A program made the position numbers and the translations under genes. Below the pieces are notes generated by a model. The model had not been told where the DNA came from. It worked only from the letters and a program-made list of their open reading frames with translations, and did no database searches. From positions 1,974,028-2,038,027 of the forward strand of contig CAWJJY010000007.1 in NCBI GenBank assembly GCA_963843385.1: a stretch of 64,000 nucleotides of DNA, in the 5' to 3' direction. This document shows positions 10,807-56,386 of the stretch, piece by piece (the stretch's first letter is position 1; every line of letters begins with the position of its first letter). The DNA is from an uncultured Acidobacteriota bacterium (GTDB taxonomy: Bacteria > Acidobacteriota > Vicinamibacteria > Vicinamibacterales > JAKQTR01).

Positions 10807-10814
10807 GAGGTCCC

Positions 10815-37095: not shown

Positions 37096-37397
37096 GCACA
37101 CCTCCATGAAGTGTTGTCGCGGGGCACATTGTCGCACGGTTTCCGGGCCGCCGCCGGCCGGTCGCCGGGCGCGCGGGAGCCTGGAGCCGCCACCCCGGTG
37201 AAGGGGAGGGACCAACCTCCCGCATCCAGGTGCATTTCGCTCGGGTTTCGGGGTAAACGCCGGAAGCACCAAGTCGTATATATTTCGTGTACCGGGACCG
37301 GGTGGGCGTGTGCCCAGCGTGTCCCTTCAGCCGTCAACGGCCCTCGGCAGGCCCGGGGAGTCCTCTGGCACGTTTTCCTTCCGCTCTCGATACAACC

Positions 37398-38777
37398 ATG
37401 CGACGTTTTACACGCACTCGTCTGAACAGCATCGGTTCCGTCATCGGCGTCATGTCGTTGGTGGCGCTCGCCGGGGCCGCCGCCGGCTGCAACAAGGCCG
37501 CCGCGCCGGGTGGTCGTGGCAGCGGGCCTCGCCAGGATCGGGTCCAGATTCGTTCCGTGAAGATTCAGCGGATCGCGATCCAGCGCCAGGTGGAGATCTC
37601 GGGGACTCTGCTCTCGCCGGACCAGGCCAAGGTCAGCAGCGAGGTCGCGGGCGTGGTCCGTGAAGTGCCGATGCAGATCGGGACCGTCGTCCGGGCCGGC
37701 GATCCGCTCGTCATCCTCGACAAGCGGGAACTGACCATGGCCTTCGAGCGGGCCGAAAGCGCGTTGCGCCAGGTCGAAGCGCAACTCGAGATCAACGGCA
37801 CGGTGTCGGTCCTCCCTCCCGCCGACGACCAGATTGCGTCGGTTCGCCAGGCCGCGGCCACCCGAGACGATGCGGCGGCCAACCTGGCACGAGTCGAACG
37901 GCTGATCGCGCGAGGGATTCTGGCGCAGGTCGATCTGGACGCGGCGCGCACCAAGTCCAAGGTGGCCGAAGCCACGTATCAGTCCACGCTGGCCTCGGCG
38001 CGGAGCCTGAAAGCCAGCTTGCAGGACCGGAAAGCGTCGTATGACCTCGCGCGGAAGAAGCTCGAAGACGCGGTCATCAAGGCGCCGGTCGACGGGGCGG
38101 TCGCCGAGCGGCTGGTGCAGCCTGGCGAGTACATTCGCGAGAACGTCCAGGTCGCGACCATCGTGTCGATCAACCCGCTGAAGCTGAGGACCGCGGTCCA
38201 GGAGCGGTATGCCGGCCTGATCGCGCCCAAGCTCCCGGTGGAGTTCCAGGTGACCTCGTTCCCGGATCAGACCTTCAAGGGTGAGATGGCGTATGTGAGC
38301 CCCGCGGTCGATCAGGCGACGCGCACCTTCGTCGTCGAGGCCCTGATTCACAACGACGATCGAAGACTCAAACCCGGGTTCTTTGCCAAGGGCGTCGTCA
38401 CCACCAAGCTCGATCAGAACGTGCCGGCGGTGACCGAGAACGCGATCTCGACCCTCGCCGGCGTATCGGCCGTCTACGTGATCGAAGCAGGGAAGATCCG
38501 CCAGCAGGGGGTCGTCCTGGGCGTCAAGCAAGGGGAACTCTACGAGATCGTCGACGGCCTGACCGGGGCCGAGGAGCTCGCCGCGAGCAACCTGAACCAG
38601 CTGGCCACCGGCACGCTGGTGCAGACCGGACAGGGCGGCCAGGCGCCGGCCGAGGGGGCGCAGCCCGGTGTCGGTGAACGCTCCGGCAGGCGCGGTGACG
38701 GAACCGGGGCCGGAGGCGGGGGCGGGCGGCGCGGTCGACGCGGCCAGGGCGCCGCCGAGCAGGGAGGACAGCGGTGA
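37398..38777 (+). CDS. RND efflux periplasmic adaptor (membrane fusion protein), lipoprotein, with a Gly/Arg-rich C-terminal tail
   Basis: Lipobox LAGAAAGC. HlyD/MFP blocks: VSSEVAGVVREVPMQIGTVVRAGDPLVILD, a coiled-coil hairpin, VIKAPVDGAVAERLVQPGEYI and VYVIEAGKIRQQGVVLG. Confidence 0.85.
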   Translation: MRRFTRTRLNSIGSVIGVMSLVALAGAAAGCNKAAAPGGRGSGPRQDRVQIRSVKIQRIAIQRQVEISGTLLSPDQAKVSSEVAGVVREVPMQIGTVVRAGDPLVILDKRELTMAFERAESALRQVEAQLEINGTVSVLPPADDQIASVRQAAATRDDAAANLARVERLIARGILAQVDLDAARTKSKVAEATYQSTLASARSLKASLQDRKASYDLARKKLEDAVIKAPVDGAVAERLVQPGEYIRENVQVATIVSINPLKLRTAVQERYAGLIAPKLPVEFQVTSFPDQTFKGEMAYVSPAVDQATRTFVVEALIHNDDRRLKPGFFAKGVVTTKLDQNVPAVTENAISTLAGVSAVYVIEAGKIRQQGVVLGVKQGELYEIVDGLTGAEELAASNLNQLATGTLVQTGQGGQAPAEGAQPGVGERSGRRGDGTGAGGGGGRRGRRGQGAAEQGGQR

Positions 38778-41700
38778 AACTAGCCGATGTCAGCGTGCGG
38801 CGGCCGGTCTTCGCGGTCATGATGACCGCCGCCTTGATCGTCATGGGATGGTTCTCGTACCGGCAGCTCGGCCTGGACCTGATGCCGAAGACCGACTACC
38901 CGGTCGTCTCCGTCGGGACGTCGCTGTCGGGCGCGAGCTCGGAGGAGATCGAGACCTCGATCACCAAGCCGGTCGAAGAAGCGGTCAACAGCATCGCGGG
39001 CGTCGACGAGCTCAGCGCCAGCTCGAGCCAGGGCAACTCCCGCGTGTCGATCACCTTCGTCCTCGAGCGCGAAATCGAATCGGCGACGCAGGACGTGCGC
39101 GACAAGGTCGCCGGGATCATGCGCCAGTTCCCGCGGGACACGCTGCCGCCGACGGTCAACAAGATGGACCCCGACTCCTCCCCGATCCTGACGATCCTCG
39201 TCTCGGGTCAGCGATCGCCGAAGGAGATCTCCCAGATCGCGGACAAGAACATCAAGCAGGTGATCGAGACGATCGAGGGCGTCGGGGGCGTGTCCCTCCA
39301 GGGCGATCGGCGCCGCGAGATCCAGCTGCTGCTCAACGCGGACCGGCTGAACGCCTACAACCTCAGCGTCGACCAGGTTCGGAGCGCCGTCCAGCGGCAG
39401 AACGTCGAAATCCCCGGCGGCTCGTTCACGGCGGGTGCGTCGGACATCGCGATGCGCACGATGGGGCGCCTCACCAACGTCCGCGACTTCAACGACATCC
39501 TGATTTCCTATCGCGACGGCATGGCGATCCGCTTCGGCGACGTGGGCCGGGTCACCGACGCGATCGAGGAGGTCCGCAGCTCCACGCGGCTGGACGGCCG
39601 GCCGGCCATCTCCCTGATGATCCGGAAGCAGACGGGTACCAACACCGTCGACATCGTCGACCGGGTCCTGGCCCGCCTCAAGCGCATCGAAGGCACGCTC
39701 CCGCCGGATATCACGATGCAGCCGATCCGCGATCAGTCGCGGTTCATCCGGAAATCGTTCGAAGAGATCAGGATGCACCTGCTCTTCGGCGGGCTGCTGG
39801 CCAGCTTCGTCGTCTTCCTCTTCATGCGGAACATCCGGCTGACCGTGATCGCGGCGCTCGCGATTCCGACGTCGATCATCGGCACGTTCTCCGTGATGAA
39901 GGCGCTCGACTTCACGTTGAACAACATGACGATGCTGGCCTTATCACTGGCCACGGGCATCGTCATCGACGATGCCATCGTCGTGCTGGAGAATATTTTC
40001 CGATACATCGAGGAGAAGAAAGTCTCGCCCAAGGAGGCGGCGATGAAAGCCACGGCCGAAATCGGCCTGGCTGTCATGGCCACGACGCTGTCGCTGGTGG
40101 TCATCTTCCTGCCGGTGGCCTTCATGACCGGTCAGGTCGGCCGCTACTTCTACAGCTTCGGCATCACCTCGGCAGCGGCGATGCTGATTTCGATGTTCGT
40201 CTCCTTCACGCTGACCCCTGCGCTCTGCTCCTGGTGGTTGCGCTCGGTCGACGAGCGCGTCGGCGCCCACCGTGCGACGAAGTCCCAGGGCGCGTACGCC
40301 TTCGTCGATCGTTCCTACGGCCGGATGCTGGAGTGGTCGCTCCATCATCGCGGCTGGATGCTGGGGATCGCGGGCGTCGTGGTGGCGTCGGTCGTCGTGC
40401 TGTTCCCGTATGTCGGCAAGGAACTGGTACCCGACGACGATCAGAGCGAGTTCAGCATCAACGTCAGGCTGCCGCAAGGGACGAGCTACGCGCGCACTGA
40501 GGAATACATCAGGACCATCGAGGCCGACCTGCGCGACCCGCAGAAGCTCCCCGAGGTCGCCATGATCCTGGCCAGCGTCAACCCGGGCAGCGCAAATTTC
40601 TACATCGGGCTGAAGCCGCTGGAAGAGCGAACGCTGTCGCAGCAGGAGCTGATGCGGCGTGCCCGCGTGATGATGCGCAAGTACCCGGGCGCCCGTATCG
40701 GCGTCTCGGGGGGCACCGACCTCTCGGGCGCGTCGAGCGGCGGAGGCCGGGGCGGCGGAGGCGGGGGCTCGAACCGGCTCAGCGTCCTCATTCAAGGGCC
40801 CGAGATTGAGCAGCTGCAGATTTACGTGACCAAGCTGATGGCGCTCGTGCGGACCATCCCCGGCGTGGTCGACGTCGACTCCAACTTCGAGCCGACGCAG
40901 CCGGAAGTCCGCATCATGACCGACCGCGCGCGCGCGGCGGACCTGGGCGTGTCGATTGATTCGCTGGCGTCGAGCATGCGGTCGCTCGTCGGCGGCGAGG
41001 AGGTCGGCAAGTTCAAGGACGGCGACGACCAGTTCTCGGTGAAGCTGCGGCTGGACCAGCAGTTCCGGGACGACCCGGCGGGGCTCGGCTCGCTGCTGAT
41101 TCCGGCTGCGAGCGGCAAGACCGTCCGGGTCAGCGACGTCGCGCAGCTGGTGATGGACCGCGGGCCGGCCACCATCCAGCGCTACAACAGGCAGCGGCAG
41201 ATTTCCGTCAGCGCGAATCTCGACAAGGTACCGCTCGGCGACGCGGTTGCCGCGGCGCGTGTGAAGGTGACCGAGCTGAACATGAAGCCCGGCTACCAGG
41301 CCGTGTTCGGCGGAAGCGCCAGGACCCTCGACGAAGCGTCCAGCGACTTCGTCATCGCGATCTTCCTGGCCGTCGCGTTCATCTACATGGTGCTCGCGTC
41401 GCAGTTCAACAGCTTCATCCACCCGCTCACCATCATGACGGCGCTGCCCCTCAGCCTTCCGGCCGGCATCCTGTCGCTGATGGCCTTCGGGATGACGATC
41501 AACGTCTACAGCGCGATCGGGCTGATGATGCTGTTCGGCATCGTCAAGAAGAACTCGATCCTGCAGGTCGACTACACCAACACGCTGCGGGCCGAGGGCC
41601 TGGAACGCCACGAGGCGCTGATGGCCGCCAATCACGTGCGATTGCGGCCCATCCTCATGACGACGATGTCGATTGTCGCCGGCATGCTGCCGATCGCGTT

Positions 41701-41941
41701 CGGCAAGGGCGCGGGATCGGGCTCGCGCGCGTCGATGGCCGTCACGATCATCGGAGGCCAGATTCTCTGTCTGTTGCTCACGCTGCTGGTCACGCCGGTC
41801 GTGTATTCGTATTTCGACGACCTCCGCGAGCTCAAGATCACCGACCTCGTCAGGGCGCTCGCTAACCGGATCCGCGGCCGTAAGGCGGTCAAGGCGGCGC
41901 TGCCGGGCGCCCAGCCGACGCCGGCAACGCCGATCGAGTAG
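38774..41941 (+). CDS. RND efflux transporter permease (AcrB/HAE-type, 12 TM)
   Basis: VRRPVFAVMMTAALIVMGWFSYRQLGLDLMPKTDYPVVSV, LSLATGIVIDDAIVVLENI, FGIVKKNSILQVDY. GTG 38774 overlaps the adaptor gene stop (GTGA). Confidence 0.9.
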   Translation: MKLADVSVRRPVFAVMMTAALIVMGWFSYRQLGLDLMPKTDYPVVSVGTSLSGASSEEIETSITKPVEEAVNSIAGVDELSASSSQGNSRVSITFVLEREIESATQDVRDKVAGIMRQFPRDTLPPTVNKMDPDSSPILTILVSGQRSPKEISQIADKNIKQVIETIEGVGGVSLQGDRRREIQLLLNADRLNAYNLSVDQVRSAVQRQNVEIPGGSFTAGASDIAMRTMGRLTNVRDFNDILISYRDGMAIRFGDVGRVTDAIEEVRSSTRLDGRPAISLMIRKQTGTNTVDIVDRVLARLKRIEGTLPPDITMQPIRDQSRFIRKSFEEIRMHLLFGGLLASFVVFLFMRNIRLTVIAALAIPTSIIGTFSVMKALDFTLNNMTMLALSLATGIVIDDAIVVLENIFRYIEEKKVSPKEAAMKATAEIGLAVMATTLSLVVIFLPVAFMTGQVGRYFYSFGITSAAAMLISMFVSFTLTPALCSWWLRSVDERVGAHRATKSQGAYAFVDRSYGRMLEWSLHHRGWMLGIAGVVVASVVVLFPYVGKELVPDDDQSEFSINVRLPQGTSYARTEEYIRTIEADLRDPQKLPEVAMILASVNPGSANFYIGLKPLEERTLSQQELMRRARVMMRKYPGARIGVSGGTDLSGASSGGGRGGGGGGSNRLSVLIQGPEIEQLQIYVTKLMALVRTIPGVVDVDSNFEPTQPEVRIMTDRARAADLGVSIDSLASSMRSLVGGEEVGKFKDGDDQFSVKLRLDQQFRDDPAGLGSLLIPAASGKTVRVSDVAQLVMDRGPATIQRYNRQRQISVSANLDKVPLGDAVAAARVKVTELNMKPGYQAVFGGSARTLDEASSDFVIAIFLAVAFIYMVLASQFNSFIHPLTIMTALPLSLPAGILSLMAFGMTINVYSAIGLMMLFGIVKKNSILQVDYTNTLRAEGLERHEALMAANHVRLRPILMTTMSIVAGMLPIAFGKGAGSGSRASMAVTIIGGQILCLLLTLLVTPVVYSYFDDLRELKITDLVRALANRIRGRKAVKAALPGAQPTPATPIE

Positions 41942-42134: not shown

Positions 42135-43334
42135 CTACTGCCTGAAGATGCCGAGGCGCTGGAGACCGCTGACCGCGTTGAAGGTCACCAGCAGTTCCAG
42201 CCGACGGGCGTTCGGAATCGCGATCGTGTTGTGCGACGCCTGCGTGCCGAAGAACTGGAGGCCGAACTCGGGCGTGAGCTTGAACGTGGCTGTCTCGAAG
42301 AAGCGCTTGCCGCGAAAATATCGGTCCCCGTTCGTCGTGGGTGCGAGGTTGTCGATATCGGCATATCCGAGCCCCGCCGCAAACCGCCTGGTGATGGCCT
42401 TCTCGCCGTAGATCGCGTACCCGGAACCGCCCTGCGGGTCACGACGAAAGTACTGCTCGAACCTGACCATGTCCACGATGACGAGCGGCAGTGTCCTGGC
42501 CACGACCGCGTACCGGAACGTGGGCACCCCGGTCAGCCTCGAATACTCGGCTGACGCAGTCAGCTGCCTGGTGACGTTCTTGGTCGCGAAGAACTGGACG
42601 TAGTTCGGTTCATCGCTCAGCCGCCTGTAGCGGTTCGTGATGCTCGGGCTCGTCAGGTCGCCGAGGTACGCCGAGGTCACGCCAAACTCGTCGAGGAAGA
42701 AACCCTTCGGGCGTTTCACGCTCACACGTTCGCCGACCAGATACCCGTCATTGTCGTAGGTGGTGATCTCGGTGGACTCGCCGCGCATCACGCCGAAACC
42801 GCCGATGCTGATCTCGACGCCCGGCACCGGAACGGCCGCGACGTAGAACTGCTTGAGATACCAGTGATTGAAGCTGTCGCCGGTGCCGATGCCGGTGTTG
42901 TTCCAGCCGCCCGTGAACGTATTGCCAGTGGCGTAGACCGCATTGACCGTATAGCGCCCCTTCGGATCGAACTTGAACCGGCCCTTGAACTGGCCGGAAT
43001 CCTGGATCTGGCTGGTCGTCCGGACATCGCGGCTGTTCACGATCGTACGCTGGCGGAGAGAGACGGTTCCGATCTGCAGTTCGAACCAGCGGCTCAGCCT
43101 CGACGGCTTGGGCTTGGCCTCAGCATCCTTCCCTTTCTTCTGGGCCTTCTTGTCATCCGCGTTTCCGGTCACCGACGACGGGTTGGCGGCGACGCTGCTC
43201 TGAACCTCCGCCTGCGTGGTCTGACTCGAACGCTGCCGCGCCAGGAGACTCGAGGGAACCAGGACCAACGCCACGATCGAGATGGTGGCGATCTGGACGC
43301 GGGTAGCAATTGCCGGGCGGGCGGTTGACGTCAT
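42135..43334 (-). CDS. Putative outer-membrane beta-barrel / porin-like protein (family not recognised)
   Basis: GGAGG lies before ATG 43334. The hydrophobic N-terminus (RVQIATISIVALVLVPSSLLA) is followed by a Lys-rich linker. The rest alternates amphipathic strand-like segments rich in G/Y/F/T (RYTVNAVYATGNTFTGGWNNTG, GYAIYGEKAITRRFAAGLGYADI). Confidence 0.5.
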   Translation of the reverse strand: MTSTARPAIATRVQIATISIVALVLVPSSLLARQRSSQTTQAEVQSSVAANPSSVTGNADDKKAQKKGKDAEAKPKPSRLSRWFELQIGTVSLRQRTIVNSRDVRTTSQIQDSGQFKGRFKFDPKGRYTVNAVYATGNTFTGGWNNTGIGTGDSFNHWYLKQFYVAAVPVPGVEISIGGFGVMRGESTEITTYDNDGYLVGERVSVKRPKGFFLDEFGVTSAYLGDLTSPSITNRYRRLSDEPNYVQFFATKNVTRQLTASAEYSRLTGVPTFRYAVVARTLPLVIVDMVRFEQYFRRDPQGGSGYAIYGEKAITRRFAAGLGYADIDNLAPTTNGDRYFRGKRFFETATFKLTPEFGLQFFGTQASHNTIAIPNARRLELLVTFNAVSGLQRLGIFRQ

Positions 43335-43772
43335 CGGGGGCCTCCTTCGGCTGCTGGGGCTGACAGCGAACATCCACTGCAGTGGCCGGGTGCCGCCGAA
43401 GTTGAGCACGTGGCCACGCCCGTTCAAGCCGGTTCGACGAAACACCGATTGCACCGGCCTCGCCATCCTTGCGGCCGGTCCGGAACCCCGCGCCACGACC
43501 GCGCGACCGGGTCCCCCTCTTGGTCCCAGAGACCGATGAAGGCGTTTCCTGTGATGATAGCCCGAATCGTGTCCTGCTTCGCGCAGGTCCGGCCGGCATG
43601 CCCCGCGCGGCTGGATCCGGACGTGCCGTGAGCGGTCGTGCGGAGCCTGGATGCGGCGAGGTAGGTGCGGCCGCCTCGTCGAGTCACGGATATCGCGTCC
43701 CGAGTCAGAGCGGCGGCGAGCGGCGCATTCACGCCCGGGTGCGATCGAATCGGCGAGCGTGCGAGCAGGCGG

Positions 43773-46028
43773 TCATCCTGCCGCGCGCAGCCCGGCCGCC
43801 TGCACGCTGCCGAGCGTCGTCAGGTTCACGACGTCCTGCACGGAGTTGCCGTACTGCAGGAGCTGAACGGGCAATCGTGTTCCCGTCAGGATGGGGCCGA
43901 CCAGCACCGTGTCACCCACCGCCTGCAGCAGGTGCATGGCCATGTTGCCCGACTGCAGGTCGGGAAACACCAGGACATTGGCGTCCTTGTCGAGCGCGGA
44001 GAATCCGAAGTATCGGCTCCGAATCTCGCGGTTGACGGCCGTGGCGATCTGCATCTCGCCGTCCACGGCCAGGCCCGGAGAGCGTTCCTTGACGATTTCG
44101 GTCGCCCGCCGCACCTTTCGCGCAAACGGGTGGTCGACCGAGCCGAAGTTCGAGAACGACAACATCGCCACGCGGGGCTCGATGCCCAGCAGCCGGACCA
44201 TGCGCGAGGTCAACAGTGCCGTCTCCGCCAGGCCGTTCTCGTCGGGTTCGATGGCGACGGCGCAGTCGGCAAGGAAGAACACGTCCTTCGGCAGCAGCAC
44301 CATGTAGTAGCTCGACACGCGGCTGATCCCGGGCGCGGTCCCGATCGTCTCGAGCATCACACGCAGCGAGTCCGCGTAGTGGTGCTCGATGCCGCCGACG
44401 AGCAGGTCGGCGTCGCCGCTGTGGAGCATCATGGCGCCGAAATACTCCGGCCGACGGAGGCGCTGCTCCGCCGTGGGGCGCATCACCCCGCGCCGGCGCC
44501 GCTGGCGCACGTGCTCGTCGACATATGCATCGCGTTTCGGACTGCGGGAGGGATCCACGATGAGCAGGCCGGACGGGTCCAGCCCGGCGCGAACGAGGCC
44601 GGCGCGAATCTCGGCCTCGTCGCCGAGCAGGACGGGCCGCGCCACGCCTTCGTCAGCGAGGATGGCGGCGGCGCGCTGGATGATCTCGGAGGTGCCGTCG
44701 GCAAAGACGGTCCGAAGGGGTTCCTGCCTCGCCCTCACCATGAGCCGCCGCATCATGCCCGTGCCCGTTCCAATCCTCACGGTCAGGCTCTCCTGGTACG
44801 CCACGTCTTCGACCGGCCGGCCGGCCACGCCGTCCTTCACCGCCTGGCGTGCAACCGCCGCGGACTGGCGAACGAGGATCCGGGGATCGATGGGTTTCGG
44901 CAGCAGGTACTCCGGCCCGAAGCTGAGTCGTTCGTAACCGTACGCCCGGCTGACTTCGTCGGCCACTTCGTCGCGGGCCAGATCGGCGAGCGCCCTCGCG
45001 GCAGCCATCAGCATCCCGTCGGTGATCCGGGCCGCCTGGACGTCGAGGGCTCCGCGGAAGATGTACGGAAAGCTCAGGTGATCGACAATCGCGTTGGGAA
45101 AGCGCGTGAGGCTGGTCGCCACGATCACGTCGCGGCGGCTTTCTCGCGCGGACTCGTAGCCGATCTCAGGTTCGGGCGTCGCCATCGCCAGCACGATGGG
45201 GAACCGCGCCATCGAGCGGATCATCTGCTGTGAGAGCACGCCGCCGGCGGACGCCCCGATGAACACGTCGGCGCCCCGCAGCCCGTCCTCGAGCGCGCGC
45301 GGCGCATCCGCGCGTGAGAAGGCCCGCTGATGAGGTCCGATGTCCTGCCGGTCGGGATGCACGAGGCCGTTGAGGTCGTAGAGCCGGAGCTGTTCGGCCT
45401 TCGCGCCCATGCCGATCAGGAATCGCGCGCAGCCGATGCCGACCGTGCCCGCGCCGCAGATCACGATGGCCGCGTCGGCAATCGTCTTCTCCGCGAGATC
45501 GAGCGCGTTGAGGAGCGCGGCCGCCATCACGACCGCCGTGCTCTGGAGGTTCTCGTGCACGACGGGGATGCGAAGGCCCTCGCACAGGCGCGCGTAGATC
45601 TCGAGGCCTTCAGGGGCCTTGATGTCCTTGAGGTCGATTCCGCCGAAGGTCGGCTCGAGCATCTGGACCGTGTCGACGAAGCGGCCCGGGTCCCCGGTGT
45701 CGAGCTCGAGATCGAACACGTCGATGTCGGCCAGCCGCTTGAAGAGCACGGCCGTCCCTTCCTGCATGGGCTTCGCGGCGAGCGGCCCGACGTCCCCGAG
45801 CCCGGGCACCGCCGAACCGTTGGTGATGACGCCGACCAGGTTGCCACGGGCGGTGTACCGGAACGCCGCGTCGGGATCGGCGTGGATGGCGGCGCCCGGG
45901 AAACACGCACCGGGCAGGTAGGCCAGCCGCATTTCGCGGGCGGTGAGGCACGACTTCGTGGTCCGCAGCTCGATCTTCCCGGGCCGATCCGCTTCGTGGT
46001 ACGCGAGGGATTCATCGGGACGAATCAT
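43773..46028 (-). CDS. MaeB-type malic enzyme + phosphotransacetylase-like domain protein, with a divergent active site
   Basis: Overall collinear with NADP-malic enzyme MaeB (YTARGNLVGVITNGSAVPGLGDVG, EPTFGGIDLKDIKAPE, CGAGTVGIGC, ATPEPEI, FPYIFRGALDV) plus a C-terminal PTA-like half. Its ATG overlaps the stop of the giant upstream gene (ATGA). See the findings for the substitutions. Confidence 0.8.
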   Translation of the reverse strand: MIRPDESLAYHEADRPGKIELRTTKSCLTAREMRLAYLPGACFPGAAIHADPDAAFRYTARGNLVGVITNGSAVPGLGDVGPLAAKPMQEGTAVLFKRLADIDVFDLELDTGDPGRFVDTVQMLEPTFGGIDLKDIKAPEGLEIYARLCEGLRIPVVHENLQSTAVVMAAALLNALDLAEKTIADAAIVICGAGTVGIGCARFLIGMGAKAEQLRLYDLNGLVHPDRQDIGPHQRAFSRADAPRALEDGLRGADVFIGASAGGVLSQQMIRSMARFPIVLAMATPEPEIGYESARESRRDVIVATSLTRFPNAIVDHLSFPYIFRGALDVQAARITDGMLMAAARALADLARDEVADEVSRAYGYERLSFGPEYLLPKPIDPRILVRQSAAVARQAVKDGVAGRPVEDVAYQESLTVRIGTGTGMMRRLMVRARQEPLRTVFADGTSEIIQRAAAILADEGVARPVLLGDEAEIRAGLVRAGLDPSGLLIVDPSRSPKRDAYVDEHVRQRRRRGVMRPTAEQRLRRPEYFGAMMLHSGDADLLVGGIEHHYADSLRVMLETIGTAPGISRVSSYYMVLLPKDVFFLADCAVAIEPDENGLAETALLTSRMVRLLGIEPRVAMLSFSNFGSVDHPFARKVRRATEIVKERSPGLAVDGEMQIATAVNREIRSRYFGFSALDKDANVLVFPDLQSGNMAMHLLQAVGDTVLVGPILTGTRLPVQLLQYGNSVQDVVNLTTLGSVQAAGLRAAG

Positions 46029-49000
46029 GACGGCACCTCCACCGACGGGCGCACCCGCAAGGGATGGCGGTCGGTCGCCTCACGCCAGACGGCAAACGCG
46101 GACGGAACCGGGCGAACCTGGAGCAGGCTCACGTGCGGACCCTCGAACCCGAACTCGATGTCGAGCGGCGTTCCGTACGCGTGTTCGAGCCGCAAAGCCG
46201 TCTCCACGACCTCGAGCAGTTCCGGATACTCGAGGGCCGGCCGGAGCCGCTGGTGGGCGAGCGTGTCGACCTTGACGGTGCCCTGCCCGAACCGTTCGTC
46301 GTAGACGACGCGCGAGCGTTTGTCGCTCGTCAGGTAGCGGAAGCGCGGCGGGGCGGCGCGGTCGCCGGACTTCGCCACCAGCACGTGGTCGGCCGCCACG
46401 GTCCCCGACACGATGCCTTCGCCGAGCCCGAGCCCGACGTTGATCACCAGCTCGCACGGGTTCGACTGCGCCGCATTGATCGTCTGGACCACGCCTGAGA
46501 CGCGCGACTGCACCATGCGCTGCACGATGACACCGCCGTGCGGGCACCGGCGGTCGTGGCGCTGCAGGCGGTCGCGAATCGCGCGCTCCGTCCAGAGCCC
46601 CGCCCATGCCCGTGTCAGCACCTCCAGCACCCGCGTCTCGCCGCGGATGAACAGAAAGGTCTCGAACTGGCCGGCCCGCGTCTCGCGCTCAGTGTCCTCC
46701 TCGAGCCCGGACGATCGGATGGCGACCGAGTCGGCGCCGAGATCGCGCCACGCGTGGCTCACCTCGACAGCCACGCTGGCCGGGAGGGTCATCCGCCGCC
46801 AGATGTCCTGGATTTCCGACGCCATCCACGTCGGTGTGCGGTCGGACCGATCGAGCACGGCTTCGATGGCCCGCCGCACGGTGCCGCCGGCACCGGCCGG
46901 CACCGCTTGCCGCGCCTCGAGGTCAAACCCGCTGTCCAAGGCCTCCTGAAACGCGCGGTCGGCGATGGCGAACCATCCCGGGATCGCCGCGCCGCCGAGA
47001 ACGCGCGCGGCCTCCGCGAGGTTGGCTGCCTTGCCCCCGACCAGCTGCTCGAGATCGATCCCGCCGTCGCGCGGGACGATGATGAGTCGGTTCGAGAGGG
47101 GCCCCCCTCCAGCCTCCGCGCGGACTCGAGCCGCGGTGGCCACGCGCTCCTCGGCGCCATCGCCAATTCCCTCGATGCCAAGCACCGCGTTCAGGCGGTT
47201 CAGCACAACCCCCAGCCGGCGCGCCGAGCCGAGGCCGGTGTCCGCGAGGATGTCTGCCCGCATTGCGTCCCGGAGTCGCAACAGCCGCTCGGCGGCCAGC
47301 GCGTCGAAGTCGTTCGAATCGCCGATGCCCAGCAGCGCGGGCTTCAGCCCGCATCCTTCGACGGTGGCCTGGACCTGCCGGCAGGACTGCTGTAAGTCGA
47401 ACACCGCCTGGCGCAGCGCCAGCACATCGTGCGCGGTTGTCGCGCGTGGAATCTGCGCGATGGCCCGTTGCCGGGCGTCGGCGAGTTTGCGGGAGAGTGC
47501 GGTTCCCACCTGCGTGACGGACTCGTGCGCGAAGCGTCCGACCTTCGAGTTGCCGATCAGCAGCGACAGCAGCGGCACGAGGTCTCCGCCGCTGCCGCCA
47601 GCGACTGACGCCGCCTCGCCGATCAACAGTTCCTCGACCCCATAGCGGGCCAGGCCCGGATCGGCGATGCGCGGAACGAGCCGTTCGAGCTGGTGCCGGC
47701 TGTGAAGCCGCCGGCCACGCTCTCCAAGCACTTCTTCGGGGCGTGCGCGAGAGAGGCTCTGGCACGCATCGGCGTAGAGGTGGAGCGCCGCGTGAAACGT
47801 GCACGCCAGCGGATCGTGGCCGAGCAGCCGGAGCAGTCCCTGGCCCGCGTCGAGCACCACGAGATCGCCGTCGCGGACGACGTCGTCGACCTCCCGGATG
47901 TCGACGAACTTCACGACCTGGTAGCCGGCGGTCTCGGACGCCTGTTCGCGATACCTGGAGCGTCGACAGGTCAGGCTCGTGTCTCCGCCGGCGGACCGGG
48001 CCCAAGTCCCTTGCACGATGACGGCCGGCCGGCCCGACTCGACCGCCACCAGACCGAGGTGGCTGAGGATTCCTCCGCCGGTAGACACAATCCCCGTCGC
48101 CGCGTGCAGGAATGGTGCATCGGCGGGCTCGAGCCGCTCGGTGACGAGCACACTCCCGGCGCAATCCTCCGGCCGGCGCCCGGCGGTGCCGATTCGAACC
48201 AGGCCCGTGGCGCGTCCGGGCGAGGCGGCCGTCGCGCGAACCAGTCGCTCGCCCGGAAACGCCGCGGCAGGCGGCCGCGGGTGCGGCGTGCGGAACCGGC
48301 GCCGGATCTCCTCTACGGCCGTCCCGTCATCGTCGGCATGCGGCGCCACGGCATCGCCCAGGTAGTTGGCTCGACGGAGCCTGGCAAACAGATCGGCCCC
48401 GTCGCACAACGGGCTGTCCTGCCACTCCCCTCCCGGCTCGGCGCGACGCCGGTAGAGCGCGCCATCCAATGCCGCGCACGCAATCCGTGCCACGCCCTCG
48501 TGGTCCCGCAGCAGAAAGACGCCCAGCGAGGCCCTTCCGAGCGAGAGTGAGGCGTGCTGCACGTCGTACGCGTTGATGCTGCCAATCGTCCGGAAGCGGA
48601 CGCTGCGATCGACGAGCGAGATCAGCCTGGCCACCTGCGCGGCCTGCGCCAGCACCGGCGAGGGCGAGTCCAGGATCTCCACCAGTCGGTCGACCGCGTG
48701 GACGGGTTCGAACACGTCCGGGCTCGATCCGACGGGCCCGTCGGATGTCTCGACCAGCTCGCCCTGGGCGACCGCGGAGCGTAAGGGTTCGAGAATGAGG
48801 GCCTCGAACGGCACCTGCCGCAACAAGCTGGGCACGGCGGCCGGATCGGCCCGCGCGATATTCAGTTGCTCGAGCACGGTCGTCACGTATTCACCGCAGG
48901 CCGCAGGAAACTCGACGGTGAACCGGTCCCGGTATGCACCCTCGCCTGTCCAGCGGACTTCCCGGACTCCCTCCGCTCCTTCTTCGATCGAAACCAGAAT

Positions 49001-51181
49001 GCCGGCCCGGTCCTTCGTCAGGAACTGTTGAACCGGCAGCGCACCCCAGTTCTGGTAGAAATCGGCCCAGGCCGACGCGACCTCCCGCCGGGCCTCGGCC
49101 GGGAGCGCCAGCGACGCAACGGTCCAGTCAACGTCCATCAAGTACGGCACCAGGCCGAACAGCCTTTTCGCCTGGGACACGAGATCGTCCATGCAGACGG
49201 CGCGCTCCTTGTCGTAGCGCGCATGAATGCGCGTCGAGTCGATCTCGACGATGAAGTCGAGCCGTTCGAACATGAGGCGAATGGCGTCGAGCGACGGGCA
49301 GGGGTGCCAGGCCAGTTCGTTGTTGCTGACGCCGAGGTACTGGAGGTCGATCATCCCGCCGCGCAGCGGCGGAGAGTAGTCGACCCTGATGAACGCCGGG
49401 TGATTTCGGAATCGCGCGAAATAGTGGACCTCGTTGCCGTAGCAGAAGACGCTGACCGTCGGAAACGTGCGATGCCCGTGCAGCAGCTGCCGGGCGAACG
49501 CGTCAACGATGAGCGCGACGGAGTCCGGCAGCGCCGGAGCCGTGTCGCCTCCGCCGGTCTCGTCCAGGTCGACGAATTCGAGAGGACGCGCGATCTCGAG
49601 TGGCCGCGACGGAGTCACGACGGCGAAATCGATCGTGCGCGTCGCTCGCGGCCCGGACGGCACCAATCCAAACGCCAGCTTCAGCCCCCGCTGGTGGAGA
49701 TAGCGCTTCAGGCCGTGGAGCGTGTGAATGTCGCGCGGCCCCGCGGGGTCCTCGAAGGCCTGCGCCATTCGACAGGCCTCGATCGGAACCTCGTCTCCAT
49801 CGCACCCGGCGAGCTCCCGCTCGATTCGCGACGTGATGTCGTCGAACACGCCGGCGAGGACCTCGGCTTCATCCCGGTGCGAGCTGAACATGGCGCCGAA
49901 GTCGGACACCAGTCGATCGAGCGTGTCGAAGACCTTCCGAAGGCGGAGACGAGTCAGCGGCGCGAGGTCCAGCAAGTCCGACAGCAGGTCGGCGTGGACG
50001 ACGTTGTAGGCCCTGAACCGGGCGACCGCGTCGCGCGCCGCGAAGGTTTCCGATGGGTCGGCCGCCTGGCCGCCGACCGCGACGACGATGGTCCGCTCGA
50101 ACACGCGGCGCACGCCGGGCCCGCGTTCGAGGATCGACGCTTCGGAAGGGGCGAGCACCAGCGGAAACGATCCCGCCACGCTGAGGCCCACGAAGGTCCG
50201 GGCCTCGAGCCCCATGTTGATACGGCCCCAGCCGAGCGCCGCCACCAGTTCCCTGAACCGCGACGCCCCACACTCGCGCTCGACACGCTGGAACGAGGCG
50301 AGCCCGTCCTTCGTGTCAACCAGGATGCGAGCCCGAATCAGGTCCTCGTGCGTGGCACGCGTGAAGGCCAGCGAGGGCCCGAGCACGGCGAAGCCCTCGT
50401 CGCCGAGCACGCGCCTGGCGAGGTCGTCTGAGGGTGGCCGCCCGTCAAGGTCGAGCAGGCGGGCCGCGAGGCGCTGAATGCCCGGCGTCTGACCCCGCTC
50501 GATCAGATTGGCTTCCGCGGCCGCCGTTACGCCCTCGACACCAGCGCCGCCATCCGTCCCGGCCCGGGCCCTGACGATCTGCCGGATCACCCGAAGGTCG
50601 GCGTCGCCAGAGAGTCCGCTGCCCTGCTGGTCGAGGCGATCGGCGAGAGCCTGGAGGACGGGATCCGACACGATGAGGGTCCCGGCATCGGCCGCCCGTG
50701 CGATGGCCTCGAGTGCGCGCCTGGCCAGCCCGGAGTCGTCGAGCGACAGCAGGGGCGCGAGGATCGGCCACGGATCGGACACGCTCTCGGCGAACTCTTC
50801 GAGCAGCCCAAACACGGAGGCAGCCACGGGGCCGGCGCGCCGGCCAAGCAGTGGCAGCAGTCGAGCGAATGACTCGCGGCTGGCGGGAAGGGCCCACGAC
50901 GCGCGCTGCCCTCTCACCTCGGCACAGGCGGCGTCGACCGTTTCCTGTCGAGGGAGATAGGACGAGCACGCCGCCGCAAGGGCACGAAGGGCGTCGTCGA
51001 GCAGATCACAGGAGAGGGATTCGCCAGCCGGCCGAGCGGCAGGCGGATGATCCGCCGGGCCCGATTCAACCTCTGGCACCGCCCGAAACCCCCGGGGGCC
51101 ACGCTGTCGTTGATGAACCGGTCCGATATGCGGGGGACGGGGGCCGTAGACACGAGCAGTATAGACCAGCCGCGAATCCAC
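46025..51181 (-). CDS. Giant (1,718 aa) PEP-utilising-enzyme-type phosphotransferase/dikinase-like protein: unknown N-terminal ~975 aa, phosphohistidine swivel domain, helical linker, C-terminal PPDK_N ATP-grasp domain
   Basis: Swivel domain, aa ~980-1060: GRATGLVRIG...VLVTERLEPADAPFLHAATGIVSTGGGILSHLGLVAVESGRPAVIV, with His1041. ATP-grasp, aa ~1366-1695: LVGGKAANLAEAARVLG..IPGWF, VAIRSSGLEEDTERETRAGQFETFL, VIVQRMVQSRVSGVVQT, NVGLGLGEGIVSG, PLDIEFGFEGPHVSLLQVRP. No PEP/pyruvate TIM-barrel motifs seen. Start is GTG 51181 and is uncertain. Confidence 0.8.
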   Translation of the reverse strand: MDSRLVYTARVYGPRPPHIGPVHQRQRGPRGFRAVPEVESGPADHPPAARPAGESLSCDLLDDALRALAAACSSYLPRQETVDAACAEVRGQRASWALPASRESFARLLPLLGRRAGPVAASVFGLLEEFAESVSDPWPILAPLLSLDDSGLARRALEAIARAADAGTLIVSDPVLQALADRLDQQGSGLSGDADLRVIRQIVRARAGTDGGAGVEGVTAAAEANLIERGQTPGIQRLAARLLDLDGRPPSDDLARRVLGDEGFAVLGPSLAFTRATHEDLIRARILVDTKDGLASFQRVERECGASRFRELVAALGWGRINMGLEARTFVGLSVAGSFPLVLAPSEASILERGPGVRRVFERTIVVAVGGQAADPSETFAARDAVARFRAYNVVHADLLSDLLDLAPLTRLRLRKVFDTLDRLVSDFGAMFSSHRDEAEVLAGVFDDITSRIERELAGCDGDEVPIEACRMAQAFEDPAGPRDIHTLHGLKRYLHQRGLKLAFGLVPSGPRATRTIDFAVVTPSRPLEIARPLEFVDLDETGGGDTAPALPDSVALIVDAFARQLLHGHRTFPTVSVFCYGNEVHYFARFRNHPAFIRVDYSPPLRGGMIDLQYLGVSNNELAWHPCPSLDAIRLMFERLDFIVEIDSTRIHARYDKERAVCMDDLVSQAKRLFGLVPYLMDVDWTVASLALPAEARREVASAWADFYQNWGALPVQQFLTKDRAGILVSIEEGAEGVREVRWTGEGAYRDRFTVEFPAACGEYVTTVLEQLNIARADPAAVPSLLRQVPFEALILEPLRSAVAQGELVETSDGPVGSSPDVFEPVHAVDRLVEILDSPSPVLAQAAQVARLISLVDRSVRFRTIGSINAYDVQHASLSLGRASLGVFLLRDHEGVARIACAALDGALYRRRAEPGGEWQDSPLCDGADLFARLRRANYLGDAVAPHADDDGTAVEEIRRRFRTPHPRPPAAAFPGERLVRATAASPGRATGLVRIGTAGRRPEDCAGSVLVTERLEPADAPFLHAATGIVSTGGGILSHLGLVAVESGRPAVIVQGTWARSAGGDTSLTCRRSRYREQASETAGYQVVKFVDIREVDDVVRDGDLVVLDAGQGLLRLLGHDPLACTFHAALHLYADACQSLSRARPEEVLGERGRRLHSRHQLERLVPRIADPGLARYGVEELLIGEAASVAGGSGGDLVPLLSLLIGNSKVGRFAHESVTQVGTALSRKLADARQRAIAQIPRATTAHDVLALRQAVFDLQQSCRQVQATVEGCGLKPALLGIGDSNDFDALAAERLLRLRDAMRADILADTGLGSARRLGVVLNRLNAVLGIEGIGDGAEERVATAARVRAEAGGGPLSNRLIIVPRDGGIDLEQLVGGKAANLAEAARVLGGAAIPGWFAIADRAFQEALDSGFDLEARQAVPAGAGGTVRRAIEAVLDRSDRTPTWMASEIQDIWRRMTLPASVAVEVSHAWRDLGADSVAIRSSGLEEDTERETRAGQFETFLFIRGETRVLEVLTRAWAGLWTERAIRDRLQRHDRRCPHGGVIVQRMVQSRVSGVVQTINAAQSNPCELVINVGLGLGEGIVSGTVAADHVLVAKSGDRAAPPRFRYLTSDKRSRVVYDERFGQGTVKVDTLAHQRLRPALEYPELLEVVETALRLEHAYGTPLDIEFGFEGPHVSLLQVRPVPSAFAVWREATDRHPLRVRPSVEVPS

Positions 51182-51266: not shown

Positions 51267-52493
51267 CTATCGCGCCGCCTGGATTTCGCGCAGCGTCACT
51301 CGAGTCCCGTCGGCGATCTGGTCGCCCGGATGGACGATGACCTGGTCGCCGGATTTCAGGCCGCCGAGCAGCTCGGCGGTCACGCCATTGCGCTGGCCAA
51401 TGGTCACGGGGCGAAGCCGCGCGCGACCGCTCTCGACCGAGAAGGCCGCCCATCGATCACCCTGTCGGAAAAGCGCGCTCGTGGGGATCTGCAGGGCGTC
51501 GGTGCGCTCCCACGTGATGATGCGAGCTTCGACGCGGTAGGCGTCGCCGAGCGTCCGCCACGCCTCGTACGGATCCTCAAGTTCGACCACCACCCAGACG
51601 CGCTGTTCCTCGACACCAAGGGCCGAGACCTTCAGGAACGCCGAGGGTTCGACACGCCGGACGCGCCCCTTGAGCGGGCTGGCTCCCCCCCACCGGTCGA
51701 TGAGCGCCGGCATGCCCGGTCGCATGCGCACCGCATCGGTTGACAGGAAGTCGGCGATGACCTCGAGCGCGGCGGGATCGGCCACCTCGATGAGCGGCTC
51801 TCCCTGCGCGACGACCGATTCGCTCTGCCGAATGCGTTTGAGAACCACGCCGTCAATCGGGGACCTCACCCCGACCGATTTCGGTGCACTGGCTGCGGTC
51901 ACGCCGCTGCCAGGCTCGACCAGCGTCGCGCGAGCAGTCTCCAGGTCGTGAGCTGCGGCTGCCACGGCCGCCTCGGCTGCCTGCAGCGAGCGCCCCCGCA
52001 CATCGGCCTCGGATGCGGCGGCGGCGCCGGCCTGGCGCGTGGCCAGTCCCTGCTCGACGAGCGACTGCATCCGATGGGCCTCTGACGAGGCAAAGTCGCT
52101 CGAAGCTTTGGCCTGCTCACGCTCGGCCCGCACGCGATCGAGCGTCGCAGAAGCCGCCTGGACCCGAGAGATGGACTCGGCGCGGGTCCTCGCGTCGAGC
52201 AGCGGCGGCGCAGCCGGCATCAGAGTCGCCAGGACCGTCTTGCCGCGCGCGACCGGATCGCCGGGCTCGAGTTCGATGCGCAACACCCGTCCGGCTACCG
52301 GCGCAGACACCACGAACCGTTCCCGGACGCGCGTGACCCCTTCATGGTCCAGGGTCACCCGCATCGGTCCCGACGTGATCGTCGCCTGATCGACCGCACT
52401 CGCACGCGGCAGCAGGGCTACGACGAGCGCTGCGAGCCCAACCAGCCCGATGACGGTCCAGATGATGACTCGTCGTCTGGTCGCGGTGGTCAT
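51267..52493 (-). CDS. HlyD/MacA-family periplasmic adaptor of an ABC exporter
   Basis: N-terminal TM anchor VIIWTVIGLVGLAALVVALL. Lipoyl-like block: VSAPVAGRVLRIELEPGDPVARGKTVLATL. A coiled-coil follows, then SPIDGVVLKRIRQSESVVAQGEPLIEVAD. Its start lies 3 nt after the permease stop. Confidence 0.85.
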   Translation of the reverse strand: MTTATRRRVIIWTVIGLVGLAALVVALLPRASAVDQATITSGPMRVTLDHEGVTRVRERFVVSAPVAGRVLRIELEPGDPVARGKTVLATLMPAAPPLLDARTRAESISRVQAASATLDRVRAEREQAKASSDFASSEAHRMQSLVEQGLATRQAGAAAASEADVRGRSLQAAEAAVAAAAHDLETARATLVEPGSGVTAASAPKSVGVRSPIDGVVLKRIRQSESVVAQGEPLIEVADPAALEVIADFLSTDAVRMRPGMPALIDRWGGASPLKGRVRRVEPSAFLKVSALGVEEQRVWVVVELEDPYEAWRTLGDAYRVEARIITWERTDALQIPTSALFRQGDRWAAFSVESGRARLRPVTIGQRNGVTAELLGGLKSGDQVIVHPGDQIADGTRVTLREIQAAR

Positions 52494-52496
52494 GTC

Positions 52497-54869: not shown

Positions 54870-54897
54870 GGCCGCGTTCCGTCCGGGGGGCGGCTGG

Positions 54898-55638
54898 TCA
54901 CCACTTGATCTCGCGCGGAGACAGCCGTGTCGCGTTCCGCCTGTCGTCGACGATGCGTCCGTCGGCGAGCGTGACGACACGGTGAGCCATCGCCGCAATG
55001 GCGGCGTTGTGCGTGATGACACAGACCGTGGTGCCCGTCTCGCGATTGACCCGTTCGAGCGCCTCGAGCACGACCACCCCGGTCGTGATGTCGAGCGCGC
55101 CGGTCGGTTCGTCGCACAGCAGCACGTCCGGCCGCTTGGCGATGGCGCGCGCGATGGCGACCCGCTGCTGCTCGCCCCCCGACATCTGCGCCGGGAAGTG
55201 TTCCGCCCTGTCGTCGAGGCCCATCAGCGCGAGCGCGTCGCCCGGCTGGAGCGGGTCGTCGCAGATCTCGGTGACCAGGTCCACGTTTTCGCGGGCGGTC
55301 AGGCTCGGGATCAGGTTGTAGAACTGGAACACGAAGCCGACGCTGCGGCGCCGGTAGGCGGTCAGCCGCGACTCGTCGGCAGCGGTGAGGTCTTCCCCGC
55401 GAAAGAACACCTCGCCGCTGGTCGGCTGGTCGAGGCCGCCCAGGATGTTCAGCAGCGTGGATTTTCCGCTCCCCGAGTGGCCGAGCAGGACGAGGATCTG
55501 GCCCCGGTCCACGTCGAGATAGACACCCCGCAGTGCGTGCACCAGCACCTCGCCCATCGTGTAGATCTTCGTCACGTCGTGGACGTGGAAGATCGCCGAC
55601 TGATCCGCCTGCGGGTGATCAAGAGATGAAGGAAGCAT
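54898..55638 (-). CDS. ABC transporter ATP-binding protein (MacB/LolD-like)
   Basis: Walker A is [10 protein letters not shown]-loop is VFQFYNL, signature is [14 protein letters not shown], Walker B is [13 protein letters not shown]-loop is VITHN. Confidence 0.9.
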
Positions 55639-55651
55639 CGTGCTGTCGCTC

Positions 55652-56386
55652 TCAGTCCTGCTTCGTGATCCCGGGCTCGGCGATCCGGCGCCACAGGTCG
55701 AACACTCTCCGAAAGAGCCGGTCCTGCTCCACAGGACTCAGGTGATCGAGATGGTCGACCATCCAGTGATCGGCCGCCTGGTCGGCCGCCGTCAGGACGT
55801 CCAGCAACATGGCCGATGGGAGGTCAGCACGGACGGCCCCTGCCTGCTGGCCGCGTTCGATCAGGGCCGAGAGCCAGGCACGGCCCTGCTGGATCCGCGC
55901 CTTGAGCAGATCGTCCAGTTCGCTCGCCGGAAGCGGGTGATACAACAGGCGTCCGACACCGGCCAGCCAGGGCAGCTCACGGATCCGCTGCCGCGTGGCG
56001 AACGAGAGCGCCTCGAGACGAGGCCAGAAGGTGTCGGCCCGCAGCGCACCGATGTCGACCGATCGATCCGGGAAGAGCGTCTCCCACACCAGTTCCACGA
56101 CCGCCCCGAACAGGTCCGCCTTGCTGTCGAAGTAGTAGTAGAAGACGCCCTTGCTCAGTCCGAGCGCCTCGATGATGTGGTTGAGCGAGGCCCGCTCGAA
56201 CCCATGGGCGGCAAATTCCGAAGCCGCTGCCTCGAGAATGACCTGTCGCCTGGCAGGGTCCAGCCGGGCGAAGCGTGGACGTGGCACGGCCGCACCTCCA
56301 GTCGTTTCGGGGACTACTGAGCAGGACCGACGACACGCTTGCGGCGATCCAGTGGGGGCGGGAGGAACTCGATCGGACCAGAGCAC
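55652..56386 (-). CDS. TetR/AcrR-family transcriptional regulator, first gene of the ABC exporter operon
   Basis: HTH region: [48 protein letters not shown]. Its stop lies 13 nt before the ABC ATPase start. The true start (GTG 56386 or an internal GTG) is uncertain. Confidence 0.85.

Follow-up and report, generated by a model that had tools for sequence, protein, structure and literature searches.

The window analysed here is a 64,000-nucleotide stretch of a contig (CAWJJY010000007.1) from an uncultured Acidobacteriota bacterium. On its minus strand it carries a gene for a 751-aa protein resembling the NADP-malic enzyme MaeB (the ME-like gene; ME, malic enzyme) and, directly upstream, a gene for a dikinase-like protein of roughly 1,700 residues (the giant). 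Judging by its active-site residues, the ME-like gene belongs to a MaeB-derived clade with a remodelled active site and is predicted not to encode a working malic enzyme. The site of a metal-dependent decarboxylase appears to have been rebuilt into a different pocket, with the Rossmann motif and the PTA-like fold kept. The reading tentatively preferred is that the ME-like protein is a non-malic, ligand-binding partner subunit of a new dikinase, with a probable role at the oxaloacetate/pyruvate node.

The ME-like protein and its remodelled active site

The ME-like protein has the conserved domains PF00390 (malic, residues 19-148), PF03949 (Malic_M, residues 161-356) and PF01515 (PTA_PTB, residues 426-738), which together make up the three-domain architecture of MaeB. 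In phmmer searches of PDB sequences, residues 5-745 align with few gaps to MaeB of Bdellovibrio (9kru/6zng; E-value about 1e-180) and the protein is similarly matched to that of E. coli (8jzo; E-value 5e-174). Identity to the solved MaeBs is about 44-48% over the full length. Its score against the NCBIfam NADP-malic enzyme model NF009501 is 648.5 bits, about half of the 1178 cut-off. Source annotations of the clade and module proteins are NADP-malic enzyme, phosphate acyltransferase and phosphoenolpyruvate (PEP)-utilizing enzyme.

The catalytic residues of Bdellovibrio MaeB have been described: K107 is the general acid/base, E149 is a Mg2+ site residue, D174 coordinates and positions K107, Y52 performs the final tautomerisation, and 207-GAGASA-212 is the dinucleotide motif (PMC7902834). 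Residues were compared using the phmmer PDB alignment and a MAFFT alignment of 78 sequences, comprising 62 clade members and 16 canonical MaeBs; the canonical set is small and mostly from Gemmatimonadales, although the PDB MaeBs show the same residues. An offset of 15 places K107, E149, D174 and Y52 at T92, K134, E159 and Y37 of the ME-like protein, and GAGASA at 192-GAGTVG-197. D135, which is kept, and N160 are taken to be the other two metal-ligand positions, presumably in line with E255, D256 and D279 of human ME2.

Four motifs are altered. The general acid/base motif GKPVMEGKG is replaced by AKPMQEGTA, the metal-site motif INLEDIKAPE by IDLKDIKAPE, the Asp-Asp motif FHDDQHGTA by VHENLQSTA and the pocket Asn segment YPNQVNNVL by FPNAIVDHL. 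The position of Thr92 is I, M, V or L among the 57 clade sequences tallied (T in the window protein) and is never Lys. D135 is the sole survivor among the Glu-Asp...Asp metal ligands and the Lys-positioning Asp. In the pocket, T284 replaces a canonical Asn that contacts the nicotinamide, V315-D316 occupy the positions of the pocket Asn residues, and PNQVNN (16/16 canonical MaeBs) becomes PNA-(V/I/L)-x-D in the clade. The dinucleotide motif has the form GxGxxG, as compared with GxGxxA (Ala at the third position) in all 16 canonical MaeBs. Adenosine-side contacts D218 (Bdellovibrio D233) and R227 (R242) are kept in 57/62 and 56/62 members, respectively, and the NADP-specifying Lys is replaced by Gln.

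The original prediction had reported these four substitutions from a manual alignment, and the PDB and MAFFT alignments match them exactly, with no shift. Its range, 45534-45773, corresponds to residues 86-165 and holds the first three motifs; the fourth lies at 45075-45101 in the same gene. Collinearity with MaeB and retention of GAGTVG, both also predicted, are borne out by the alignment. Orthologues beside the giant in other genomes, a comparison that had been proposed, do share the replacement residues: these are fixed in 56-62 of the 62 clade members (giant adjacent at 66/66 loci) and occur in none of the 16 canonical MaeBs.

The clade is widespread. A search of about 5.8 billion proteins recovered at least 120 clusters at 65-100% identity; a simple pattern match, where it was able to detect them, showed the substituted motifs again. 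When one genome per GTDB species was scanned, 80 loci were obtained. Relatives at 52-91% identity, all from metagenome-assembled genomes (MAGs), account for 65 of these; the other 15 are 43-46% identical, have every canonical residue and are ordinary MaeBs. Hosts of the clade are Acidobacteriota (including Vicinamibacteria, Thermoanaerobaculia and Terriglobia), Gemmatimonadota, Eisenbacteria, Krumholzibacteria, Ignavibacteria, Calditrichia, Bacteroidota, Planctomycetota, Desulfatiglandales and a few Pseudomonadota.

The 62 aligned members span at least nine phyla and are monophyletic in a neighbour-joining tree. Mean identity is 66% inside the clade and 44% between the clade and canonical MaeBs, while canonical MaeBs of different phyla are only 47-52% identical to one another. 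At 41 alignment columns both groups are at least 90% fixed but for differing residues, and 34 of these columns fall in the ME half. This half is also better conserved within the clade (mean pairwise identity 70%, as compared with 64% for the PTA half), with 197 of its 420 columns at least 90% conserved. Because they are fixed across phyla in a conserved, monophyletic clade, the replacement residues are judged to be under strong selection, and this constraint argues against a passive dead enzyme. Cross-phylum identities in the clade are about equal to those within Acidobacteriota. Together with the lower identities among canonical MaeBs, this may reflect an exceptional degree of constraint, a horizontal spread of the two-gene module or a combination of the two.

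Phosphate acyltransferases provide the reference for the C-terminal half. In Methanosarcina Pta, S309, R310 and D316 are catalytic, and D307 belongs to the residues that bind acetyl-CoA (PMC10194888). Active Ptas have Asp at the position of MaeB V746 (equivalent to D307 of M. thermophila Pta, MtPta) and Ser or Thr at that of MaeB Y576, and the PTA-like domain of MaeB is a hexameric acetyl-CoA sensor (PMC7902834). At MtPta D307, S309 and R310 the window protein has L723, Q725 and Y726 (43848-43862), with D732 at the position of D316. Across the clade these positions are L, V or I (D307), Q in 54/62 (S309), Y in 57/62 (R310) and E or D (D316), and the position of MaeB Y576 is Y or F, as in MaeB. 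The Pta-like 'SS' and 'ADC' motifs are present in the clade and lost from canonical MaeBs. Both NCBIfam Pta models were failed (TIGR00651: 229.6 bits, cut-off 311; NF007233: 265.9 bits, cut-off 310). By canonical residue criteria, the PTA-like half is predicted to be inactive as a Pta, like that of MaeB.

Contacts to the nucleotide part of coenzyme A (CoA; 3'-phosphate, pyrophosphate and adenine) are largely kept, as R510, R513, R556, Q660 and N695 in the window protein. In the clade, with Bdellovibrio MaeB numbering, R535 is R in 59/62, K538 is R or K, R581 is R in 54/62, Q683 is Q in 62/62 and N718 is N in 54/62; N616 is N in 57/62 but Ala in the window protein. The acetyl-pocket pair Y721/K722 of Bdellovibrio MaeB is replaced by M/L and H/Q. 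The likeliest reading of these residues is that a CoA-type ligand is still bound and that acyl specificity is altered.

The giant and its linkage to the ME-like gene

The open reading frame (ORF) of the giant could encode up to 1718 aa. Its first 60 or so codons (51004-51181, minus strand; GTG at 51181) are unconserved and of low complexity, and homologues are 1,650-1,700 aa long; the true start probably lies downstream of this GTG. AlphaFold2 models of residues 60-970 and 314-970 were obtained with a pLDDT of 85 and a pTM of 0.78-0.80. Residues 60-315 (approximately) are modelled as helical repeats for which the best Foldseek matches are the repeat proteins importin-alpha, condensin and PP2A (weak; E-value about 0.05). 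Repeats of the predicted ARM/HEAT type would be suited to protein binding.

The alpha/beta region that follows (about 320-970) has no PDB structure match below an E-value of 0.06 in Foldseek, and no Pfam domain was found in the N-terminal 1000 or so residues at E<=1. When PDB sequences were searched with a profile of the giant, only the His and ATP-grasp domains were matched. The modelled folds thus offer no clue to function. Conservation in the giant is highest at residues 390-750 (approximately), where many Arg, His, Lys, Asp and Glu positions are invariant. In a full scan of 1.84 billion representatives this core was found in only 157. Those carriers long enough to judge are giants of about 1,400-1,940 aa (1,600-1,760 aa in most cases), whereas the remainder are shorter and probably fragments; no alternative domain context for the core was found among these representatives. 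The conserved orphan core is a candidate for the giant's own acceptor domain.

The C-terminal part can be assigned to known families. The Pfam PEP-utilizers domain matches at about residues 1009-1112, and its GGxxSH phosphohistidine motif aligns with the His domains of PEP synthase and pyruvate phosphate dikinase (PPDK) in the PDB. His1041 of this motif is invariant (44/44 giants). The ATP-grasp domain is similar to those of PEP synthase and rifampin phosphotransferase (Rph) in the PDB, with E-values from 1e-27 to 1e-31. The PEP/pyruvate TIM barrel (PEP-utilizers_C) was not found in the giant by Pfam (E<=1, all segments), PDB sequence or fold searches, and its NCBIfam scores are far below the cut-offs. 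Neither CBM45/CBM20 nor another carbohydrate-binding module was detected in residues 1-1000 (Pfam, E<=1; Foldseek, all E-values >= 0.04).

The two genes are tightly linked. The start codon of the ME-like gene overlaps the stop codon of the giant, as the original prediction had stated, and a GGAGG lies seven bases ahead of the ME-like ATG. A scan of 43-52 kb for promoters and terminators found none. Co-expression through translational coupling is likely from this arrangement; the overlap, which had been read as implying stoichiometric co-expression, is no proof of a 1:1 stoichiometry or of a physical complex. In tblastn searches each of the 66 clade loci has a homologue of the giant immediately ahead of the ME-like gene, on its strand and ending where that gene starts; none of the 15 canonical MaeB loci has one. 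The genes overlap at 44 of the 66 loci, at 38 of them by the same 4 nt (ATGA, GTGA or TTGA); most of the others have a gap of <45 nt.

Among 42 loci the pairwise identities of the two proteins are correlated (r=0.88), with a mean of 43% for the giant and 66% for the ME-like protein. No other ORF of the window is conserved beside the pair in other loci, and all-against-all clustering of flanking ORFs gave no family present in >13 loci. The giant and the ME-like gene are regarded as an autonomous, co-inherited two-gene module because their adjacency is obligate, no other neighbour is conserved and their identities are correlated. The features of the module are listed in Table 1.

Table 1. Positions of the module, its domains and key residues, and of associated genes (window coordinates unless a locus is named)
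Feature	Position	Strand	Basis
ME-like/PTA-like gene, 751 aa	43773..46028	minus	ORF; Pfam malic + Malic_M + PTA_PTB; full-length MaeB structure alignment
Tyr37, kept catalytic Tyr (Bdellovibrio Y52)	45918..45920	minus	Y in 60/62 clade, 16/16 canonical MaeBs
Thr92, at general acid/base Lys (Bdellovibrio K107, E. coli K94, human ME2 K183)	45753..45755	minus	canonical K 16/16
Lys134-Asp135, at metal-site Glu-Asp (Bdellovibrio E149; E. coli E136-D137)	45624..45629	minus	K 60/62, D 61/62; canonical E, D 16/16
Glu159-Asn160, at Asp-Asp pair (Bdellovibrio D174 and next Asp)	45549..45554	minus	E 61/62, N 60/62; canonical D-D 16/16
GAGTVG dinucleotide-binding motif, residues 192-197	45438..45455	minus	three Gly kept in 60-62/62
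Pocket changes T284 and P311-N312-A313-I314-V315-D316 (canonical PNQVNN)	45081..45179	minus	T 56/62, D316 60/62; canonical N 16/16 each
PTA-like half, residues 426-738	43815..44753	minus	Pfam PTA_PTB (PF01515), E 5e-89
Gene junction: ATGA start/stop overlap 46025-46028, GGAGG 46036-46040	46025..46040	minus	sequence read directly
Giant dikinase-like gene, up to 1718 aa	46025..51181	minus	ORF; homologue upstream in 66/66 loci; conservation profile
Helical ARM/HEAT-like repeats, giant ~60-315	50237..51004	minus	AlphaFold2 pLDDT 85; weak Foldseek matches
Alpha/beta region, giant ~320-970	48272..50224	minus	AlphaFold2 pLDDT 85, pTM 0.80; no detectable homologue
Swivelling phosphohistidine domain, giant ~965-1112; His1041 at 48059-48061 in GGGILSH	47846..48289	minus	Pfam PEP-utilizers, E 2e-9
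C-terminal ATP-grasp (PPDK_N), giant 1379-1692	46106..47047	minus	Pfam, E 5e-51, profile positions 2-309 of 328
MacAB-type set: TetR regulator	55652-56386	minus	
MacAB-type set: ABC ATPase	54898-55638	minus	
MacAB-type set: FtsX-type permease	52497-55022	minus	
MacAB-type set: HlyD-type adaptor	51267-52493	minus	
Oxaloacetate decarboxylase genes with module, other genomes	L036:1990-12244; L034:4951-16618; L008:8220-13828		

Genomic neighbourhood of the module

Genes of a Na+-translocating oxaloacetate decarboxylase (OAD) are directly beside the module in 9 of the 66 clade loci, in three arrangements, and form the one flanking family with a suggestive biological role. They comprise oadA (HMGL-like, PYC_OADA and biotinyl domains), oadB (OAD_beta) and a small oadG-like gene, with a biotin ligase also present in L034. 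The OAD genes are convergent with the module and directly downstream of it in five Ignavibacteria loci (L008, L016, L017, L026 and L058) and in Eisenbacteria L035, and co-directional and downstream in Ignavibacteria L034. In Acidobacteriota they are co-directional and upstream: L036 has the order oadA-oadB-giant-MElike with gaps of 1, 16 and -4 nt, and in L025 the end of oadA just precedes the giant. OAD genes are absent from 15/15 canonical MaeB loci and from the window. The recurrence of OAD in varied arrangements points to a place for the module at the oxaloacetate/pyruvate/PEP node. In the Ignavibacterium MAG locus L008, the OAD operon is followed by genes of the oxidative pentose-phosphate pathway, for 6-phosphogluconolactonase, glucose-6-phosphate dehydrogenase and 6-phosphogluconate dehydrogenase (L008:13997-17153, minus strand).

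In the window itself, a MacAB-type efflux set (51267-56386, minus strand) is directly upstream of the giant on the same strand, with 85 bp between its end and the giant ORF, and is unconserved beside the module in other genomes. On the other side, at a distance of 277 bp downstream from the ME-like gene, is a 453-aa ORF (42135-43496, minus strand) that is without a Pfam match or an equivalent beside the module at other loci and could be a real gene or a high-GC shadow ORF. Convergent with the module is a resistance-nodulation-division (RND) efflux pair on the plus strand, encoding a membrane-fusion protein (37287-38777) and an AcrB-family pump (38774-41941). DUF1501 and DUF1800 genes are found at 4942-6285 (minus strand) and 9100-12053 (plus strand), the latter being a translationally overlapped DUF1800/DUF1501 pair. 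There is no apparent link between the module and three further genes, which encode a TonB-dependent-type outer-membrane barrel with a CarboxypepD_reg N-terminal domain (17514-21053, minus strand), an amino-acid permease (60092-61429, plus strand) and a penicillin-amidase family protein (61484-63991, plus strand). An anti-phage defence system was considered and rejected: PADLOC gave only a marginal Rossmann-type match for the ME-like protein (E-value: 4e-4) and none for the giant.

Proposed function of the module and comparison with known systems

The sequence of events envisaged for the module can be outlined in this way. The ME-like protein would be made together with the giant and work as its partner subunit. 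In the giant, a phosphoryl group would pass from ATP at the ATP-grasp domain to His1041 and from there to an acceptor, for which the novel, highly conserved N-terminal domains would provide the binding site. Gating of the dikinase would fall to the ME-like/PTA-like subunit, in response to a dinucleotide, a C3/C4 acid-like ligand and a CoA derivative and through a reuse of the domain-rotation allostery known from MaeB. The OAD link in a subset of genomes suggests that the module would act at the oxaloacetate/pyruvate/PEP node. That the ME-like protein is a ligand-sensing, oligomerising partner that reuses MaeB allostery, while the orphan domains of the giant bind the acceptor, is preferred tentatively, with a probability put just short of even.

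Several points weigh against this proposal. The very strict conservation of K134, E159, N160, T284, D316 and Tyr37 is to be expected of a new catalytic site as much as of a sensor pocket. NAD(P) binding is not assured given T284, and the loss of Y721/K722 leaves room for another CoA ligand or for none at all. The ARM/HEAT assignment draws on weak Foldseek scores. Only 14% of loci show the OAD link; six of the nine are from Ignavibacteria, the association is partly phylogenetically redundant, and none of the nine is the window. The physical complex between the giant and the ME-like protein, like the binding of ligands, is an inferred step.

The original prediction had offered two readings, a pseudoenzyme or regulatory subunit and a repurposed active site, and these are the two live explanations. 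In the second, which is a serious possibility although held with less confidence than the sensing partner, the pocket has been rebuilt into a new active site, independent of metal, for a C3/C4 oxo- or hydroxy-acid step chemically coupled to the dikinase. Lys134, at the former cation-ligand position, could serve as an electrophile, as a general acid/base or in a Schiff base with a 2-oxo acid, and Tyr37 could serve in C3 protonation; the pocket could be an acceptor-substrate site visited by phospho-His1041 or could act on the phosphorylated product. Such a role would agree with the near-invariance of K134 (60/62), E159 (61/62), N160, D316 and Tyr37 (60/62 each), with the better conservation of the ME half and with the much stronger conservation of the ME-like protein than of the giant (66% versus 43% mean identity). 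The giant is also without the TIM barrel that is the usual acceptor site of PEP synthase and PPDK, and a pyruvate-making decarboxylase adjoins the module in nine loci. However, the original general-base position holds variable hydrophobic residues, literature searches found no precedent for a metal-free catalyst with the malic-enzyme fold, and the conserved orphan region of about 650 aa in the giant could itself be the acceptor domain. A split dikinase, in which the malic pocket is the acceptor site and phospho-His1041 phosphorylates a bound C3/C4 oxo-acid, is unlikely. Its products would be, for example, PEP from pyruvate or oxaloacetate-derived enolpyruvate, or another enol- or acyl-phosphate. 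The pocket would descend from the oxaloacetate/enolpyruvate/pyruvate site, with Lys134 replacing the metal and Tyr37 kept. Such a reaction would connect with the Na+-pumping OAD found beside the module in some genomes.

The remaining explanations have little to recommend them. A genuine NAD(P)-malic enzyme that performs the same chemistry with alternative residues would account for the full MaeB architecture and fold, the identity of about 45% to solved MaeBs and the retention of the Tyr, D135 and the Rossmann motif. It is nevertheless very improbable: no tallied sequence has the general acid/base Lys, two of three metal ligands and the Lys-positioning Asp are changed, as are the Asn residues contacting malate and nicotinamide, the score is near half the NCBIfam cut-off and sampled canonical MaeBs never adjoin the giant. 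Just as doubtful is an active phosphate acyltransferase in the C-terminal half to which the ME half is a mere appendage. The strong PTA_PTB match (E-value: 5e-89), the 'SS' and 'ADC' motifs, the acidic residue at MtPta D316 and one NCBI record that names a homologue 'phosphate acyltransferase' all fit this idea, but Q, Y and L/V/I occupy the S309, R310 and D307 positions, Tyr/Phe stands where active enzymes have Ser/Thr, the scores are below the NCBIfam Pta cut-offs and it is the ME half that is more conserved. A decaying pseudogene, assembly artefact or chance divergence, suggested by nothing beyond the loss of canonical residues, is refuted by the intact ORF and by conservation, the same residues being found in 62 genomes and at least 120 protein clusters with a clade mean of 66% identity across phyla; its probability is negligible.

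Automated labelling as NADP-malic enzyme or phosphate acyltransferase almost certainly puts a wrong reaction of central metabolism into the metabolic reconstructions of Acidobacteriota, Gemmatimonadota, Ignavibacteria, Eisenbacteria, Krumholzibacteria and other uncultured soil and sediment lineages. Nature provides in this clade a clean case of an enzyme scaffold that exchanged its catalytic residues together and has kept the new ones fixed since, with an obvious partner at hand. The giant is predicted to be a dikinase with about 900 confidently folded residues that match nothing known. Identifying its acceptor would add a member to a small superfamily (PEP synthase, PPDK, the glucan, water dikinase GWD, Rph and PigC) and could bring to light a reaction or control point so far unrecognised at the oxaloacetate/pyruvate/PEP node. 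A split dikinase, if true, would be a new oxaloacetate/pyruvate/PEP route, and the malic-enzyme fold would for the first time be seen to catalyse without a metal. Literature searches on MaeB pseudoenzymes, dikinase pairing and bacterial water dikinases found no description of the clade or the module, a negative that is no proof of novelty. Each protein belongs to a known superfamily; what is new is the orphan region of about 650 residues and the pairing.

MaeB is the closest known relative of the ME-like protein (E. coli; Bdellovibrio; structures 6ZNG/6ZNJ, 8JZO and 9KRU; Sinorhizobium DME/TME). The two are alike in three-domain architecture and length, both have a non-catalytic PTA-like half, and the clade keeps most of the CoA-nucleotide contacts of MaeB acetyl-CoA sensing. 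The clade differs in the lost Lys, in the changes of Glu to Lys, Asp-Asp to Glu-Asn and pocket Asn to Thr, Val/Leu and Asp, and in the change of the acetyl-pocket Tyr-Lys to Met/Leu and His/Gln. Its genes are always behind a giant gene, unlike those of the canonical MaeBs sampled, and its members are 66% identical as compared with 47-52%. With Pta (M. thermophila Pta, the E. coli Pta C-terminal domain and EutD) the clade shares the PTA_PTB fold, the 'SS' and 'ADC' motifs and the acidic residue at the D316 position, but it is without D307, S309 and R310 and has the MaeB-type Tyr/Phe instead of Ser/Thr.

The giant shares a PPDK_N ATP-grasp and a swivelling domain with GGxxSH and an invariant His with PEP synthase, PPDK, Rph, PigC and RedH. 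In contrast to PEP synthase, PPDK and Rph, its order is reversed, with the His domain ahead of a C-terminal ATP-grasp. It is also without a TIM barrel or Rph-type substrate domain, has about 900 N-terminal residues without a known homologue and has an obligate MaeB-derived partner. The plant and algal dikinases GWD and PWD have an N-terminal recognition region followed by a phosphohistidine domain and a C-terminal nucleotide-binding domain, and the giant is similar to them in its large size and domain order. The phosphohistidine of potato GWD is His992 (PMC12892837). Unlike these enzymes, the giant is bacterial, has no detected CBM45/CBM20 and no sign of a glucan substrate, and has an ME-like partner. 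Finally, like pseudoenzyme regulatory subunits, which are maintained as partners of another enzyme, the clade keeps a catalytic fold minus the canonical residues, but its substituted residues are near-invariant, a clear sign that the pocket is still under selection.

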